Below, piece after piece: positions 7,816-51,608 of a DNA stretch of 64,000 nucleotides. The notes under the pieces are model-generated. The model was not told the origin of the DNA. It did no database searches and worked only from the letters and a program-made list of their open reading frames with translations. Each line of letters starts with the position of its first letter. Position 1 is the stretch's first letter. Origin of the DNA: a virus. Lineage: Duplodnaviria; Caudoviricetes. The translations under genes and the position numbers were made by a program. The DNA lies in the IMG/VR virus record IMGVR_UViG_3300011116_001227. One strand, given 5' to 3'.

Positions 7816-8304
7816 CTAGACACCTGTACTTCCAAATCCGCCTTCTCCTCGATCAGTCTCAGAAATAGCTGAAGACTTCTGGAAGATGGCTTGAAAAATC
7901 GGGAAAAACATTAGCTGTGCAATCCTATCACCTTTTTTAACAATAAAATCTTCCCGGCCTGAGTTGTACAGGATCACCTTTACCTCCCCGCGGTAATCGT
8001 TGTCTACGAGACCAGGAGCATTTAATACCTGAATTCCATTCTTGGCCGCTAGACCAGACCTGGAACAAACTTGTGCTGCAAATCCAGATGGAATTTCCAT
8101 CTTCAATCCCGTACCAACAACCAATCGAGATCCAGAAGGAATTACGACGTTGTCGGTTGACATGAGATCACACCCTGCAGAACCTGATGTTTGATACGCA
8201 GGAATCAAAGAATCATCATCTGTGATTACTTTGATCCAAATTGGATTCGTTGGTCGTTCAGTCATCTGATCCTCCGTCATCAGTAATGTTGTCATCTGCT
8301 TCAT
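7816..8304 (-). CDS. dut: trimeric dUTPase
   Basis: SAGCDL, RSGLAAK, GLVDNDYRGEVKV, RIAQL, RGEGGFGSTG (five dUTPase motifs); true start may be a later Met. Confidence 0.93.
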   Translation of the reverse strand: MKQMTTLLMTEDQMTERPTNPIWIKVITDDDSLIPAYQTSGSAGCDLMSTDNVVIPSGSRLVVGTGLKMEIPSGFAAQVCSRSGLAAKNGIQVLNAPGLVDNDYRGEVKVILYNSGREDFIVKKGDRIAQLMFFPIFQAIFQKSSAISETDRGEGGFGSTGV

Positions 8305-9457
8305 TCGAATCTACGGCAGGTCCAGCAACTAGTGTTAATGCACAATCAATTGCTTCCATCAACCATGGACCATGTTTGGCATCTCGTAGAAGTTCACCAA
8401 ACTCAGACTTGTAGAATTTCTTCTCTACAATGACCTCACCTGTCTTATCATCGACGACACTGAGTTCTTTCCACGCACCTTCTCCAGAAATATTGATTGT
8501 CTTACCTTTTCGTTTGATGAATCCAGTGTCCTTGCAATAAGAACGAACCTGGTCGAAAAGGTATTCATCCTCAACAATTCCCTTACCAAAGATGATGTCA
8601 AATTCGCACTTACGGAACGGAGGAGCAACCTTGTTCTTCTTAATCGTGGCGATAACGTGAATTCCAATAACGTTACCAGCCTTGTCCTTTACTTGCGTTC
8701 CAGATGTTAGCTTCAATCGAATTGATGCATGATAAGGAATTGACTTTCCTCCAGGCGTGACATCAGGATCTCCGTGAAGTACTCCGATAGCAGTGCGCAG
8801 CTGATTTAGACATAGAAGGGTCACATTGTTCTGTCCAATAACACCAGTGATCTTGCGCATGCCCTTTGAGATGACTCGTGCCTGAAGACCAATTGTGTTA
8901 TCCTCATACTCGCCATCCAGCTCTGCTTTAGGGGATGTCGCTGCCACAGAATCCCAGATGACTAAAATTGGAACATTCTTATCAAGGATCTGCTTGGCCT
9001 TTGTGATTGTAGACTCAATGATCGAAAACACTTCTTCTGTGCAGTGTGAATCGCAATACACAAATCGCTTACGAACATCGATTCCCATCGTCGCCAGCTT
9101 GGCAACAGGAGTTGCATTCTCGGTATCGACATAAACAACAAGACCACCAAGCTTTTGAGCCATGGCCGCTGCGTGGTAGGCAAGGTGAGACTTACCGATG
9201 GATGGCGCGCCAGAGATCTCAATGATTCGACCCTCTGGGTAACCACCATGGGTGGCATTTCGAATTGCATAGTTTAATTGAATTGAACCTGTGTCCAACC
9301 ATCGTTTGACAACAGTTGGAGCTTCATCTTCACCAAGGTTATATGCAATCCTTTGACCGAACTCTTTGTTTAGAGCCTTGATCAGGTCATTTGTCATGTT
9401 CGCTACTGTGCTGTCATCTTCAACTTCAAGATCATCAACCTTTGATTTCTTTGCCAT
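8258..9457 (-). CDS. recA: RecA-family recombinase
   Basis: GRIIEISGAPSIGKS Walker A, VIWDSVAA, GLQARVISKGMRK, NQLR, TPGGKSIPYHASIRL, KNKVAPPF; start taken at MAKKSK (9457) rather than 9496. Confidence 0.93.
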   Translation of the reverse strand: MAKKSKVDDLEVEDDSTVANMTNDLIKALNKEFGQRIAYNLGEDEAPTVVKRWLDTGSIQLNYAIRNATHGGYPEGRIIEISGAPSIGKSHLAYHAAAMAQKLGGLVVYVDTENATPVAKLATMGIDVRKRFVYCDSHCTEEVFSIIESTITKAKQILDKNVPILVIWDSVAATSPKAELDGEYEDNTIGLQARVISKGMRKITGVIGQNNVTLLCLNQLRTAIGVLHGDPDVTPGGKSIPYHASIRLKLTSGTQVKDKAGNVIGIHVIATIKKNKVAPPFRKCEFDIIFGKGIVEDEYLFDQVRSYCKDTGFIKRKGKTINISGEGAWKELSVVDDKTGEVIVEKKFYKSEFGELLRDAKHGPWLMEAIDCALTLVAGPAVDSNEADDNITDDGGSDD

Positions 9458-9494
9458 ATGATCTACTATTATCTCCTTAATGTGCAAATAGTAC

Positions 9495-46140: not shown

Positions 46141-46494
46141 TTAAGAATTTTTTAAAGTCAAATGAGATAAACGATGATGCTTCTTTCTAAGAACAAGAGG
46201 ATTGTCTTTGACGAGCCAGAATTCTTTCTCTAGCGGAGGTTCTTCTCCTGCTTTAAACCACATCAACTTTCTTCCGCAAGACGAAGAATATACGCCAATT
46301 ATCGTTATCTCTCCAGCATGAATTAGATCATGACACGTGTGACACACTATAGCCAAATTGTGATTGTCGTTGGAGCATCGAGGATCGCACCGCGGAATGA
46401 TGTGGTGAAAGTTCAACGCCGCAGACCGATCAAACCCACAGACCTCGCACTGTTTTTTGACGAGTTTAGGTTGATTTCTGCTGCGACGCTTCAC
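46141..46494 (-). CDS. small HNH endonuclease
   Basis: CEVCG...LNFHHIIP...NLAIVCHTCHDLIH. Confidence 0.8.
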   Translation of the reverse strand: MKRRSRNQPKLVKKQCEVCGFDRSAALNFHHIIPRCDPRCSNDNHNLAIVCHTCHDLIHAGEITIIGVYSSSCGRKLMWFKAGEEPPLEKEFWLVKDNPLVLRKKHHRLSHLTLKNS

Positions 46495-47485: not shown

Positions 47486-47935
47486 TCAGGTTCCGCTGAA
47501 TGTCATCGTTCCTGAAACTGCTGTCTGCAAGAAAGACTTGCCGTCGCAGATATAAGCTGCTGCATTGCCAAGAATCGCTTGAAATGTAGATTTGCTGCCG
47601 TGACCAGCATTGTTTCCTGTTCCCGCAGATCCAGCAAACACTAGAGTTCCAGGATCTTCTTGAGAGCCTGTAAGGACGTGTGCCGTTGCAGAAGCATTTC
47701 TAAAAACGAAAAGAGATCCTGGCACTGTCGCTGCAAGAGGCATTGTAACAGTAACAGCAGATGCGCCGCTGATTGTGTACACGCCGCCAGCAACGAGTGT
47801 TGTGTTTGATGTAATAGGCGTAATTGTAACGACTGGTGTTGATGCAAATGTAATTGCAGAATCAATCTGCACGCCTGTCTGACCGCCAATCTGATTGAAA
47901 CCTGATGTGTCGTCAATCTTAACTTTAATACTCAT
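47486..47935 (-). CDS. putative virion structural / decoration protein
   Basis: 149 aa, Thr/Ser/Gly/Ala-rich, beta-strand-like; AAGGAG SD and ATATTTA motif at 47983-47989. Confidence 0.5.
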   Translation of the reverse strand: MSIKVKIDDTSGFNQIGGQTGVQIDSAITFASTPVVTITPITSNTTLVAGGVYTISGASAVTVTMPLAATVPGSLFVFRNASATAHVLTGSQEDPGTLVFAGSAGTGNNAGHGSKSTFQAILGNAAAYICDGKSFLQTAVSGTMTFSGT

Positions 47936-48029
47936 TGTGATTTTTCTCCTTGAATTTCCCCCACACTAAAATTGGGACACACTAAATATAGACTAGTCGA
48001 TTATTTAAAATAATTGTTCTATAGTCGAA

Positions 48030-48473
48030 TTATTTAGACATCATATAAGACTTGAATGCATCACTTCCAATAGCGTGATGCTTTCCTTCAATCTGATAAT
48101 AAAGATTCACACCGACGTTTAACGACCATTGCACCATCCAATTGAGAGTCTTAACGTCAAGTTTTCCCCCTGCTTCTGCAACCTCATAATGCGTGAGATC
48201 AGGTTGAGAAGGTAAAATAATTTTTGAAATTATGACTCCTGTTAAGTCAGGTCTCATCCACTCTGGAAAAGTTTCCTGCTCGGCGAGCCACGCGCAATTA
48301 TACGTTTTGCATACATCTGGACGACCTACATAATCAGTACATTTTCCTTTCGAGAGAAAGAAACAAGGACAACCTGGATACATGCTGTGACCTTTAATAT
48401 TAGCTGACAACCATCCTTCACAACACTTTGTGCATTCTCCACAAGTTCTATTTGCAATTTTTAATTGTTTCAT
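48030..48473 (-). CDS. YkgJ-like cysteine-cluster (Zn/Fe-chelating) protein
   Basis: CGECTKCC...CPCFFL..GKC..Y..RP.VCKTYNCAW; start taken at MKQLKIA (48473). Confidence 0.7.
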   Translation of the reverse strand: MKQLKIANRTCGECTKCCEGWLSANIKGHSMYPGCPCFFLSKGKCTDYVGRPDVCKTYNCAWLAEQETFPEWMRPDLTGVIISKIILPSQPDLTHYEVAEAGGKLDVKTLNWMVQWSLNVGVNLYYQIEGKHHAIGSDAFKSYMMSK

Positions 48474-48756
48474 CTGATTCCCAGTTTGATTTACCCACTG
48501 GATAACACTTGTAACATCTGCTGCCTCTTTCAAATGCTTGAAGAGTCTTTGGTTGAACTTCTCCACACTTCACGCATTCAAATTTGAGATACTGCTGTTG
48601 TCTTGATCTGTATTCTTCTAGATTTGTAATTAATTTAAACTCTTTTGATCTCTCTAATATTCTTTCTTCTATTGTTAAAGTTACCAACATTTTATTTTCA
48701 GATATTTTTTTAAGAGTCTCCTGGGTGTGGTGTCGACCATAAAAATGGTTTCCGGG
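48448..48756 (-). pseudogene. internal fragment of a NUMOD3 / Hef-like homing endonuclease
   Basis: frame upstream of the 48690 ATG is open and reads PGNHFYGRHHTQETLKKISENK (NUMOD3-like); downstream CVKC...RCYKCYP parallels CNRC...RCFQCAP of the 28380 protein; no nuclease core. Confidence 0.65.
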
Positions 48757-48757
48757 A

Positions 48758-48790
48758 ATACATTAACTGAATGTTTATAAACTACAAAGG
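48758..48790 (+). repeat. 33-bp direct repeat, copy 1
   Basis: ATACATTAACTGAATGTTTATAAACTACAAAGG; 32/33 identical to 49642-49674. Confidence 0.92.
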
Positions 48791-48800
48791 ACATGTTGAT

Positions 48801-49628
48801 TCAAGACAGCTCTGCATCCTCCGGGGCGAGCATCACCACGAACCACCAATTGCGCTTCTCACAGAAAGCCTTCGCGGCGTCCCACTTGGCCTGGTCCACG
48901 GCGTCGTGGCGACCCTTCACCTCGTACAGGGTGCGGTCGTCAAATCCGTAGAAATCAGGAATGTAAGTCCGAGTGGTGCCGTCGGGGTGGGTATAGGGAA
49001 TCTGGATGCCGTGGTTCTTGGTGACGTGGTACTGGCGAGACACGCAGGCCTGGTAGAACGCTGACTCCCAAGACGAGTGCATGTGCTCCTCCTCGCCGGT
49101 CCACGGGCTGATCAGGGTCTCACGCTTGAAGGGAGCGTGCGGTCCGATCTTGTTGTCAGCCAAGAGCTGCACGGCACGAGCGGAGGCTTCTTGCCGGAGG
49201 ACGGGTGCGAGGGGCGACTCAGCCCAGAAGCGACGAATAGACTCTGTCTGTTTCTTTATTGCCTCAGGAGTTTTTGAAAGAGGATTCATCTTTTTTATTC
49301 TCTTTTTTGCTACATCTGGGTGTTTTGACATGAATTCTTTCATGTTTACAGAGTTCTTCCTCCCGATCTTCGCCTTCTCTTCTTCAGATTTGATTCTGCC
49401 ATGTGCGTGATGTCCGTGAATAAATCGGGTAAAATCCTTTAAGGCAATATTCCACTTATTTTTGGAACCACATCCACAAGCACAGTGTGGAGCTTGTCCA
49501 CCGTATTTCCACTTGAGCACGTATTCTTGCGCGTTGATCTTGTGACATCGAATGTGTCTTAAGACGAACTCTAATGAATCGAATTCAGTATTACACTCTT
49601 TACAGACATTGTCAATTTCAGTTAACAT
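48801..49628 (-). CDS. putative homing endonuclease: C2H2 + CxCGCG module + TnsA-like PD-(D/E)xK domain
   Basis: CKEC...HIRCH, CACGCG...HGH, NUMOD3-like KSEEEKAKIG, SSWESAF, IPYTHPDGTTRTYIPDF...LYEVKG...KWDAAKAFC. Confidence 0.78.
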   Translation of the reverse strand: MLTEIDNVCKECNTEFDSLEFVLRHIRCHKINAQEYVLKWKYGGQAPHCACGCGSKNKWNIALKDFTRFIHGHHAHGRIKSEEEKAKIGRKNSVNMKEFMSKHPDVAKKRIKKMNPLSKTPEAIKKQTESIRRFWAESPLAPVLRQEASARAVQLLADNKIGPHAPFKRETLISPWTGEEEHMHSSWESAFYQACVSRQYHVTKNHGIQIPYTHPDGTTRTYIPDFYGFDDRTLYEVKGRHDAVDQAKWDAAKAFCEKRNWWFVVMLAPEDAELS

Positions 49629-49641
49629 ATAACTATTATAT

Positions 49642-49674
49642 ATACATCAACTGAATGTTTATAAACTACAAAGG
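49642..49674 (+). repeat. 33-bp direct repeat, copy 2
   Basis: ATACATCAACTGAATGTTTATAAACTACAAAGG; overlaps the base of the capsid-gene terminator stem. Confidence 0.92.
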
Positions 49675-49691
49675 CCACCTTTTGGGTGGCC
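49673..49691 (-). terminator. intrinsic terminator after the major capsid gene
   Basis: perfect stem GGCCACC-CAAAA-GGTGGCC followed by TTTGTAGTTT on the minus strand. Confidence 0.8.
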
Positions 49692-49730
49692 TCTGCAGAT
49701 CTTAGGCTATGAATTCAGATGATATTCATG

Positions 49731-51608
49731 TCATATCACGTTCATGTCCAAGCATGTGACAGTCCCGAAGAAATCACTTCGGACCATCTTCTTGCCGTAG
49801 CGAGTCATCACGCCTTTTCTTGGCGTAAAGTCCTCAGGAGCGAAGATGGTGGGTGTCACAATGAGTGGAACGTATGGAGCGTAGACGTAGCCGGTCTCGA
49901 GGTAGGAGCCGCCCTTGTAGCCGACGAGGATCTTGTTACGTGGGAAGTAAGGATCCTTGTAGACTGTGAAGCGGTTAGAAACTGAGCCGATTGCCTCTGC
50001 ACCGATTGTGAATGGAGAAGCGACCTGTCCCTCGCCATCGATAGAAAGCTTTGGCTTGTAGAGGACAGAGCTCTCGAGGATCGTTGCAACATCTGGGCCG
50101 CAGACCATGAAGTTTGCAGAGCCACGGAGTGTCTTGCGGTGAATGGTGTTCGCAACGTCGATGACTGTCTCAACGAGTGTCTCGTACCACTCACGAACTG
50201 TACCGGTGAAGGCTGGTCCGATCTGGAGGCCATCAGCGAGGGCAGAGCGTGCTCCTGTAACCTTGTTAACGAAGCGACCAGGTGAACGTGACCAGTAGTA
50301 GTTAGCGCCGTTTGCCTGTGTGACGAGGTCGTTGAGGATCTCGCGGTCGATCTCGAGAGCAATTTGCTCAGAGAGGATCGAGGTGAGCTCAACCTCTGCG
50401 TCCATCGAGTGATAGGCGTTGAGGTCTTGCGCGAGTTCAGGTGACCAACGTGCGCGGAGCTTGCGGGTCTCAGCTGTCACAGCGATAGACTCGATACGGA
50501 TGTCGATCTCTGGGATAACTGGAGATGGGTTTGATCCGAAGTCAGATTCGAAAGAAGGCACTGTAACTGTGCTGCCAGCTGTGCTGTCAACTGAGAGTGC
50601 AGATGAAACAGCGTATGTTACGTGAGCTGTGGCTGTACCTTGAAGCTGAGATGTGTTTGTTGCTGCAACAAGTGCGAGAAGGTGTGCACCGCCGAGTGGG
50701 TTTGGTGTCCAAACCTTAGAGGTGTTGTTCCAGTCACCGCGCTTGTTGAGGCGACGAAGGTTCTTGATGCCTGTGCCACCTTGGAAAGCCTCGCCCCATG
50801 CGAGTGCGTTGGTGAGACCGCTGTGAACAGCGACCTGATCGATTGCAAGTGCGTCGACGTTTGATCCGAGATCGGAGAGCTTGACAACGACGAATGCAGC
50901 ATCGAGTGTTCCTAGTGCAAGAGCATTCTCGACCTGTGGGTCGAAATCTGCGTAGCGAGCGTTAGATCCGCTGAACATGGAATCAGATGTGATCATTGCA
51001 CCCTCAACCCATGTACCAGCAGCGTTCCAAGAACCTGAAGCGTTTCCTGTTGCTGATGCGTCGTAGGTGAGATCGAGTGTAGAAACTGATCCTGTCACGC
51101 GGCTGTAACCTGCACCAACGAGGTCGTACATACCACCAGCTGCAAGAGATCCAGATTGGACGCCCTTACCACGTGGGTTGTTGTAGATAGATTGACCTGC
51201 GGTGTATGTTGATGTAGAATCTCCGCTGATTTGACCAACGTTTGTTCCGTAGGTGTAATCAAGGTAGAAGATTAGACCTGATGGGAGGCTCATTGGTTGG
51301 ATGGAGACGAGCTCGTTGGCAACGAGGCCACCGAACACGCGGCGGACGATTGGGAATGCGATGTTGCTGAAGCCCTGGATCTGACCGGAAGAAGCAATGT
51401 TTCCGCCGCCAGAAGAAAGAGCTGAGCTCTCCTTGAGGACCTGTGCTGCTTGGTTCTCGAGAAGCTGTGACATCATCTCGCGGCGTTGACCGTCGAGTCC
51501 ACGGAGGAGGCCTGTGCGGCTCCACTTCTCTGTTAAACGGGCGCGCTCTGCACCAACGTGCTTGTCGCGAATGCCCTGTGCTAATTGATCTAAGCTAAAA
51601 TACTTCAT
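49731..51608 (-). CDS. gp23: major capsid protein
   Basis: KWSRTGLL.GL, MSQLLENQA, AFPIVRRVFGGL.ANELVSIQPMSLPSGLIFYL, TRKLRARWSPELAQDLNAYH.MDAE.EL, GYVYAPYVPL, PRKGVMTRYG. Confidence 0.96.
   Translation of the reverse strand: MKYFSLDQLAQGIRDKHVGAERARLTEKWSRTGLLRGLDGQRREMMSQLLENQAAQVLKESSALSSGGGNIASSGQIQGFSNIAFPIVRRVFGGLVANELVSIQPMSLPSGLIFYLDYTYGTNVGQISGDSTSTYTAGQSIYNNPRGKGVQSGSLAAGGMYDLVGAGYSRVTGSVSTLDLTYDASATGNASGSWNAAGTWVEGAMITSDSMFSGSNARYADFDPQVENALALGTLDAAFVVVKLSDLGSNVDALAIDQVAVHSGLTNALAWGEAFQGGTGIKNLRRLNKRGDWNNTSKVWTPNPLGGAHLLALVAATNTSQLQGTATAHVTYAVSSALSVDSTAGSTVTVPSFESDFGSNPSPVIPEIDIRIESIAVTAETRKLRARWSPELAQDLNAYHSMDAEVELTSILSEQIALEIDREILNDLVTQANGANYYWSRSPGRFVNKVTGARSALADGLQIGPAFTGTVREWYETLVETVIDVANTIHRKTLRGSANFMVCGPDVATILESSVLYKPKLSIDGEGQVASPFTIGAEAIGSVSNRFTVYKDPYFPRNKILVGYKGGSYLETGYVYAPYVPLIVTPTIFAPEDFTPRKGVMTRYGKKMVRSDFFGTVTCLDMNVI

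Follow-up and report, generated by a model that had tools for sequence, protein, structure and literature searches.

Introduction

Endonuclease genes located beside essential genes have been described (PMC10448857), and in phage T4 the slot after gene 23, which gene 24 bounds on its other side, is taken by segD, a GIY-YIG endonuclease gene (PMC2988022). For free-standing endonucleases, resection must reach the donor homology that flanks the gene, and co-conversion has been described in T4 (PMC2988022). In the cases of I-TevI, I-TevII, I-TevIII, segB and mobE of Aeh1, a hairpin blocks translation on read-through transcripts, while an internal promoter gives translatable ones (PMC2988022). Here we analyse a stretch of 64,000 nucleotides (nt), in the following called the window, from the viral record IMGVR_UViG_3300011116_001227 (Duplodnaviria; Caudoviricetes), in which an open reading frame (ORF) of 275 amino acids (aa), designated HE-A, lies behind the major capsid gene and is bounded by two copies of a 33-bp direct repeat. 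With a probability of roughly 0.7, we take HE-A to be a free-standing homing endonuclease that spread by intronless homing into an uncultured T4-like phage of fresh water.

Compared to the seg and mob genes of T4-type phages, HE-A shows several likenesses. It is an intergenic endonuclease gene beside an essential, conserved gene, with segD being closest in position; it is present in some relatives and absent from others; a near-identical copy occurs in a divergent genome together with a co-conversion gradient that reaches into the adjacent gene; and a hairpin with a promoter-like box inside lies over the translation start. It differs from them in its nuclease, which is of the TnsA-N-like PD-(D/E)xK type and not GIY-YIG or HNH, and in that a C2H2-like zinc finger begins the DNA-binding part. 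Moreover, segD is antisense to gene 23, whereas HE-A runs in the same direction as its gene 23, and, in contrast to the T4 hairpins, that of HE-A covers the AUG itself, with no Shine-Dalgarno sequence visible. A second point of comparison is I-Ssp6803I, a homing endonuclease with a PD-(D/E)xK fold. With this enzyme and the EDxHD enzyme I-Bth0305I (PMC3239194), HE-A has in common the use of a restriction-endonuclease-like fold in homing and a phage, metagenomic setting. Those enzymes are, however, intron-encoded or built on a Vsr-like catalytic core, whereas the best fold match of HE-A is TnsA; 3r3p, the catalytic domain of I-Bth0305I, was neither matched by HE-A in sequence nor among its top 50 fold matches.

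Repeat pair, empty allele and conversion tract

A repeat search run across the whole window found a single family of direct repeats, with copies at 48758-48793 and 49642-49677 that match at 34/36 positions and are spaced 884 bp apart. The core of the pair is a 33-mer (32/33 identical), and a 25-nt core is present in exactly 2 copies in the 64-kb window, compared to 0.00 expected from 100 shuffles. On the minus strand the locus reads gp23 gene, stem-loop, repeat copy R (49642..49677), 13 nt (49629-49641), the 275-aa ORF (48801-49628), 10 nt (48791-48800) and repeat copy L (48758..48793), with HE-A being the single sizeable ORF between the copies. Copy R adjoins the stem of the capsid terminator, overlapping GGCCACC/GGTGGCC (49673-49691) by 2 nt. 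The layout given in the initial annotation, i.e. a 33-bp repeat with 32/33 identities and a period of 884 bp, nothing but the endonuclease ORF plus 10 and 13 nt between the copies, and a repeat that is the DNA following the capsid terminator stem, is thus borne out by the repeat search and the ORF map; the repeat merely extends further, to 34/36, and starts at the stem foot with the said overlap.

To compare this arrangement with that in other samples, we used Logan contigs of four runs from four studies (X1, X2, X3 and X12, the last an independent freshwater metagenome run) against window positions 47900-50700. The source sample is polymorphic at this locus, with contigs breaking nearby, so that a mis-join of two haplotypes could in principle have produced the duplication. 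In X1, however, records 1 (47900-48826) and 3 (48994-49763) bridge the repeat copies plus both flanks, X3 record 28 (49179-49890) bridges copy R with its flanks, and the two repeat junctions are covered in different studies (X1 records 1 and 3; X2 records 16-19; X3 records 25, 26 and 28). As each copy is spanned, flanks included, in contigs of several runs, we regard the chance of an assembly artefact, which had been raised along with the initial annotation, as next to nil.

An empty allele with a single 33-mer is present in X12. Hereby, record 10 (934 nt, depth 8.8) joins 48764 directly to 49649, skipping 884 nt. Its left part (48003-48764) shows 2 differences from the window, while the part after the skip (49649-49814) shows 15/166, the first of them at 49703. 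The adjoining record 11 (49791-49973) has 11/183 differences and records 13-15 (49947-50609) have 0. The depth of HE-A in X12 is ~0; window parts that are uncovered in X12 were given no weight, and the bridging contig is what testifies to the empty allele. The core common to the X12 joint measures 26 nt, and on its right side record 10 represents a haplotype of its own. Logan contigs are built on 31-mer words, and a false join is therefore unlikely at a shared core shorter than these. When IMG/VR and JGI contigs were searched for the same combination, i.e. the 'A' allele of the 33-mer (the allele found in X12 and in copy L) joined to a fragment of a second endonuclease gene, HE-B, without an endonuclease, none was found; it was seen only in X12.

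A donor-like copy of the cassette is found among the relatives, for which 80 IMG/VR loci (L numbers) were retrieved with the capsid protein at 63-98% identity. Contig IMGVR_UViG_3300011113_000734 (L081/L082) is 100% identical to the window over most of 48786-49735, 88-96% up to 49935 and 74-88% further into the capsid gene, with 74-80% given for the part beyond 49936; it has no similarity to the window left of 48786. Its capsid gene is only ~80-85% identical to that of the window, compared to ~99-100% for the cassette. In X3, the endonuclease has a depth of 46-114 as against 4-6 for the left flank of the window, and it is likewise deeper in X1; loose ends in X1 and X3 lead into two other downstream contexts, one of which is of the L082 type. 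The excess depth and these other contexts indicate that the cassette resides in several phage genotypes of the same waters.

Judged by these comparisons, the window is an X12-type backbone in which one patch has been replaced, made up of the 884-bp unit together with spacer and capsid 3' end amounting to ~170-250 nt. The patch extends from within the 33-mer to ~49857-49947. Its capsid-side part, the putative co-converted capsid 3' end plus spacer (49693..49940, minus strand), is delimited by the differences from X12 and by the falling identity to L082, with a right limit of ~49857-49947. The repeat copies follow the same division. Copy R, with the 'G' allele, does not differ from its counterpart in L082 and L089, and came in together with the cassette. 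Copy L, with the 'A' allele, matches the capsid-proximal 33-mer of L092 at 33/33 positions and has the allele of the lone 33-mer of the X12 empty site; it is the 33-mer native to the recipient.

Proposed homing and the origin of the repeat

The one-sided replacement of the capsid 3' end points to double-strand-break repair with co-conversion, i.e. to homing. An X12-type backbone with capsid gene, terminator, one 33-mer and a truncated HE-B would have been broken near the capsid 3' end, and the break would have been repaired from a co-infecting donor bearing HE-A. Repair would then have copied ~170-250 nt of the donor capsid 3' end, the terminator, the donor 33-mer with hairpin and start region, and the gene. 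On the capsid side, where homology is continuous, the conversion tract would simply fade out. On the far side, homology between donor and recipient would have been limited to a paralogous intergenic segment, which is diverged in L082. Because only this segment is homologous downstream of the gene, resolution would have taken place inside the recipient's 33-mer, leaving two copies, the donor's upstream and the recipient's downstream on the HE-B remnant. The cleavage activity of HE-A and its target site, as well as the direction and pathway of the repair, are what we infer from sequence comparison. What marks a homing gene is found here in silico for the protein and its distribution, namely a nuclease domain with intact catalytic residues and presence or absence at one intergenic site; in addition, HE-A is far more conserved than its flanks, and a co-conversion tract lies in the adjacent capsid gene.

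Several points weigh against this interpretation. The empty allele is seen in a single contig, from one run. No contig could be identified as the true donor, L082 differing from the window at ~16 positions in 49736-49935. A comparison of the capsid 3' ends of relatives with and without HE-A gave no consistent difference, and no target site was deduced from it. The evidence for the nuclease is in silico only. For the start-codon hairpin, the covariation test on 7 sequences was not significant, as these sequences are too alike, and a scan for promoters gave no sigma-70-type call within the repeat. Finally, homing by itself does not account for the first duplication, i.e. the diverged copy in L082.

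A different route of entry is suggested by the cassettes known as PeSL (promoter-early stem-loop), composed of a stem-loop terminator and an early promoter. In the T4-type phages RB49 and phi1, these cassettes flank single ORFs and recombine to indels and mini-circles in ~1 in 10^5 virions (PMC2839356; PMC4122927), and recombination between the copies can delete, insert or circularise an ORF (PMC2839356). As in those cassettes, the ORF is single, non-essential, located in a plastic region and flanked by a short terminator/promoter segment, and the HE-A repeat adjoins a terminator and has promoter-like boxes. Recombination between the repeats could thus have released an 884-bp circle (gene plus one 33-mer) that underwent Campbell-type integration into the single 33-mer of an empty genome; integration via a common segment yields flanking repeats and a one-copy empty allele, as found. 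Entry of a circle would, however, spare the capsid 3' end of the recipient, whereas the window differs from X12 over ~170-250 nt and there resembles L082, i.e. the insertion of HE-A was accompanied by flank conversion. Moreover, a genome has ~50 PeSL copies, which are dispersed over its hyperplastic regions and have consensus sigma-70 boxes, while the HE-A segment has a poor -35 box and is specific to its locus, occurring twice in 64 kb and once per contig in relatives. No joint of the circle or tandem type was present in the contigs of the four runs, although contigs cannot show rare forms. We therefore consider entry as a circle unlikely; excision by recombination between the repeats is possible. 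A combination of both routes is equally doubtful, in which the gene and its 33-mer would form a self-contained 884-bp unit that spreads by homing and, in addition, as a circle re-entering genomes that retain the solo 33-mer of an earlier occupant. If this were true, what a decayed endonuclease had left behind would serve its successor as a landing pad.

The locus in relatives

HE-A has a tblastn match in ~30 of 82 loci, starting ~100 nt after the capsid stop and with an identity of 23-98%. It is placed at the same site in every one of them, and other loci are without it. Some loci hold HE-B (~476 aa) behind the capsid gene instead, in L004 and L041 both genes stand in tandem, and some loci have neither. 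Seen together with the segD slot in T4, this variety of occupants identifies the space behind the capsid gene as a hot spot of endonuclease turnover.

In the nearest subclade, the 33-mer itself occurs once, in this form or in a version with 3-5 substitutions, directly behind the capsid terminator. The single copy is followed by HE-A in L004, L013, L017, L090 and L092, and by HE-B, without HE-A, in L016, L091 and L093. The IMG/VR and JGI contigs, those of 90-211 kb included, have at most one match each, always behind a capsid terminator, and a comparison of the upstream regions of 44 genes showed that the 33-mer is not common to them. As it is present in single copy per contig both with and without HE-A, the 33-mer is resident backbone DNA and neither part of a transposon nor a dispersed element. 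Among the HE-A-bearing loci, flank-to-flank similarity is clear in 2/13 (the window and L082), borderline in 2 and lacking in the remaining 9/13, whose flanks are unrelated. Duplication is thus not an obligate product of insertion.

Other relatives show related arrangements downstream of HE-A. L082 has a diverged second copy of the intergenic segment right after the HE-A stop, which is ~70% identical and extends through the TATAAT box. L014 (3274-3410) and L092 have a second, partly decayed terminator/promoter-like segment downstream of HE-A that resembles the capsid-gene 3' flank of other lineages, e.g. L021. From this resemblance it appears that, in L014 and L092, a whole unit of terminator plus endonuclease inserted ahead of an older terminator.

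The second copy in L082 also bears on the possibility that the second 33-mer of the window arose locally, by unequal recombination, template switching or gene conversion in a genome that already had HE-A, with X12 being a separate lineage. T4-type phages recombine very actively, segmental amplification driven by endonucleases via microhomology is documented (PMC13096335), and homogenising a diverged copy such as that of L082, which lies at the homologous position, would give the state of the window. The HE-B fragment joined to copy L is, however, the very one to which the single copy of X12 is joined, with 2 differences in 762 nt, and L082 is unrelated left of this joint. The left flank must hence come from a genome of the X12 type and not of the L082 type, and a purely local rearrangement is in our estimate distinctly improbable.

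HE-B remnant and turnover at the site

Directly beyond copy L lies an internal fragment of HE-B (residues ~105-199; 48472..48756, minus strand), which was identified by tblastn with intact HE-B from six loci and is 67-82% identical to that of L016, L004, L009, L077, L041 and L032. The homology starts with residue 105 at window position 48756, abutting the end of copy L, and ends with residue ~199 at 48472. Copy L is thus fused to an internal remnant of a decayed HE-B. The intact gene codes for ~476 aa and is found, e.g., in L016 at 8032-9462. Its product shows a NUMOD3 motif (E 2.4e-5) and an N-terminal zinc-finger-like motif that resembles the one in HE-A, along with faint matches to REase_MTES_1575 and, at E 0.47, to 3r3p, the catalytic domain of I-Bth0305I. 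Going by these matches, HE-B may be a homing endonuclease of the EDxHD/Vsr-like type.

Decay by deletion can be followed in several loci. In L016, ~20 nt of the HE-A 5' end are kept after the 33-mer and are then followed by the HE-B leader; as this stub remains ahead of the leader, L016 has lost HE-A by deletion. In L089, the 33-mer plus 1-2 nt is joined to HE-A codon ~222 (L089:3741-3760), and in the window and X12 the 33-mer is joined to HE-B codon 105. The deletion in the window (48756-48760) and that in L089 look independent of each other, yet both start at the boundary between arm and loop of the start-codon hairpin, and the joint reads TCCCGGA in either case. Breakage at the hairpin tip, microhomology or shared descent are possible reasons for this common joint.

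The same plastic region holds, ~2.3 kb downstream, an intact gene for a 117-aa HNH endonuclease (window 46141-46494; Pfam HNH, E 1.8e-5). This gene is 64-79% conserved in 15 related loci, and its distance from the capsid gene varies.

The endonuclease HE-A

Residues 208-266 of HE-A match the Pfam family PF08722 Tn7_TnsA-like_N with an E value of 2.4e-10 and 41.2 bits (curated cut-off 26.5), and further matches of HE-A are to endonuclease families in PHROG. Across 11 aligned homologues from related contigs (40-98% identity), E188, D225, E236 and K238 are invariant, which gives a catalytic motif of the PD-(D/E)xK type in the form SSWE...PDF...ExK. The AlphaFold2 model of HE-A has a mean predicted local distance difference test (pLDDT) score of 75, with 82-95 for the nuclease domain. 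Its top Foldseek matches in the PDB are the TnsA structures 1t0f and 1f1z, with a probability of 1.0 and a root-mean-square deviation of 3.3 A over 130 columns, the E value being only 0.01; archaeal Hjc resolvases rank after TnsA. The N-terminal part contains a C2H2-like zinc finger (C9, C12, H25 and H29; weak matches), a second Cys cluster and a NUMOD3-like helix. A sequence search of solved structures with HE-A returned zinc-finger noise only.

With TnsA of Tn7 (1f1z, 1t0f), HE-A has in common the fold of the catalytic domain and a motif of the E...D...ExK type. In line with the initial annotation, which had called the ORF a TnsA-like endonuclease, a fold of this kind next to a direct repeat that bounds one gene could be taken to indicate a minimal TnsA-like transposon, with the 33-36 bp repeat being a very long target-site duplication made by staggered cuts. 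The TnsA C-terminal domain is, however, absent, as HE-A ends ~10 residues past the nuclease core, and Pfam and PHROG scans of the vicinity found no tnsB/tnsC-type partners, the neighbours being the capsid gene, the HNH gene, small unknown ORFs and the endonuclease remnant. HE-A is thus TnsA-like in fold only. The repeat search of the window gave no terminal inverted repeats, its sole inverted repeat being the start-codon hairpin, and in contrast to Tn7 the locus is without TnsB-type transposase, TnsC, TnsD, transposon ends and a 5-bp duplication. Moreover, HE-A is at the same site in every locus, most occupied sites are without a flanking repeat, the 33-mer is already present singly in unoccupied sites and the adjacent capsid sequence was co-replaced. 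A target duplication by staggered cuts was rejected, since the 33-mer pre-exists and the flanks are unrelated in 9/13 occupied loci, and we consider transposition altogether highly improbable.

To judge by its composition and its relatives, the HE-A ORF is a chimera of two modules, in line with the domain shuffling described among phage homing endonucleases (PMC10448857). The 5' module (49229..49628, minus strand), delimited by the GC profile and weak C2H2 matches, has ~40% GC and contains the zinc finger and the NUMOD3-like part. The 3' module (48801..49228, minus strand), defined by PF08722, the invariant columns and the fold matches, has ~60-66% GC and contains the TnsA-N-like PD-(D/E)xK nuclease. 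At the nucleotide level, the 5' module is 100% identical to L082 and 72-77% identical to L004, L013, L017, L090 and L092, and it has no match to L014. The 3' module, in turn, is 97% identical to L014 (2840-3270) over 409 nt, the N-terminal module of L014 being of a different type without DNA similarity to that of the window. The junction of the two modules lies within the conserved peptide RFWAESPLAPVLR. The pattern of module swapping is repeated in L041 and L004, with an AT-rich version.

Searches of cultured phages returned little. A tblastn search with HE-A gave only a weak match, to gp4 head-completion genes of Synechococcus phage S-SSM5, and a distant blastn search with the 4.3-kb region gave only a 185-nt capsid match; these searches thus provided no cultured relative. 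The match of the nuclease domain to S-SSM5 gp4 (GU071097.1:5292-5627) amounts to 32% over 87 aa (E 1e-3), and HE-A also matches PHROG 218 'head closure' (E 2.7e-10). These similarities hint that T4-type gp4 and HE-A have the TnsA-N-like fold in common.

Capsid terminator and start-codon hairpin

The capsid gene (49731..51608, minus strand) codes for a gp23-type major capsid protein of 625 aa (Pfam PF07068 Gp23, E 1.7e-77; PHROG 138 major head protein, E 5e-74). It is followed by a stem-loop of the intrinsic-terminator type (49670..49694, minus strand) with the stem GGCCACC/GGTGGCC and A-U extensions, which is retained in 7 relatives, including one two-sided change. The RNA fold of 49600-49700 has -40.4 kcal/mol (z -8.4). 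The first 10 nt of the repeat are the T-tract of this terminator.

The 3' half of the repeat belongs to a second structure, a predicted 15-bp RNA hairpin (49617..49655, minus strand) obtained by folding the window, L004 and L013. Its 5' arm (49641-49655) consists of the last 14 nt of the repeat and one further base, its 3' arm (49617-49631) includes the HE-A AUG (49626-49628), and its loop holds TATAAT. The hairpin folds in L004 and L013 as well, and in 7 sequences 94% of the cells are paired. Copy L lacks the partner arm and hence forms no hairpin; the fold of 48716-48816 is no better than that of shuffles (z +1.5). The 33-mer is therefore resident regulatory DNA, in which the T-tract of the terminator is combined with the 5' arm of the hairpin predicted to bury the HE-A AUG. 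By analogy with T4, this hairpin may control the expression of HE-A. It is also conceivable, as in the case of I-TevI and its own promoter, that HE-A binds the 33-mer both as an operator and as part of its target.

With regard to transcription, the repeat region shows a clear terminator, a TATAAT box and a poor -35 box. A canonical T4 late promoter was considered for the repeat and rejected, TATAAATA being found nowhere in the window. Upstream of HE-A (49626-49641), the TATAAT box ends 6 nt before the AUG, again with no Shine-Dalgarno sequence in sight, and the same spacing of TATAAT and AUG is seen in the type-2 upstream regions of L008, L041 and L015. This arrangement suggests a leaderless or very short-leader HE-A mRNA.

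Conclusions

In conclusion, when the empty site, the conversion tract and the relatives are taken into account, the cassette belongs to the known free-standing homing endonucleases, with a nuclease domain that is unusual for this role, and the repeat is a by-product of recombination. The recent insertion proposed in the initial annotation is corroborated by the empty allele with a single 33-mer, which had been suggested as the thing to look for and was found in an X12 contig, and by the ~99-100% identity of the cassette in a divergent phage. In relatives that lack the ORF, the 33-mer is present once and not twice, and no contig of up to 211 kb has more than one match, which speaks against a dispersed element. 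Two of the ideas put forward at that time do not stand: the repeat is no long target-site duplication, given that the 33-mer is resident once in relatives with and without HE-A, and a mobility mechanism other than homing is not called for, as co-conversion of ~170-250 nt of the capsid 3' end fits homing. Since the direct repeat is explained by known recombination biology, no new mobility mechanism is indicated.

To our knowledge, there is no precedent among phage free-standing homing endonucleases for a TnsA-N-like PD-(D/E)xK nuclease combined with a zinc-finger/NUMOD3-like module. For uncultured phages, the locus is an unusually clear natural case in which the states before and after homing of a free-standing endonuclease can be compared: the site is seen both empty and filled, a copy resembling that of the donor is known, and on one side a conversion tract has overwritten the end of the major capsid gene. 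Together with its relatives, it displays a full cycle of turnover at one site, from invasion through module swapping and decay by deletion to re-invasion.

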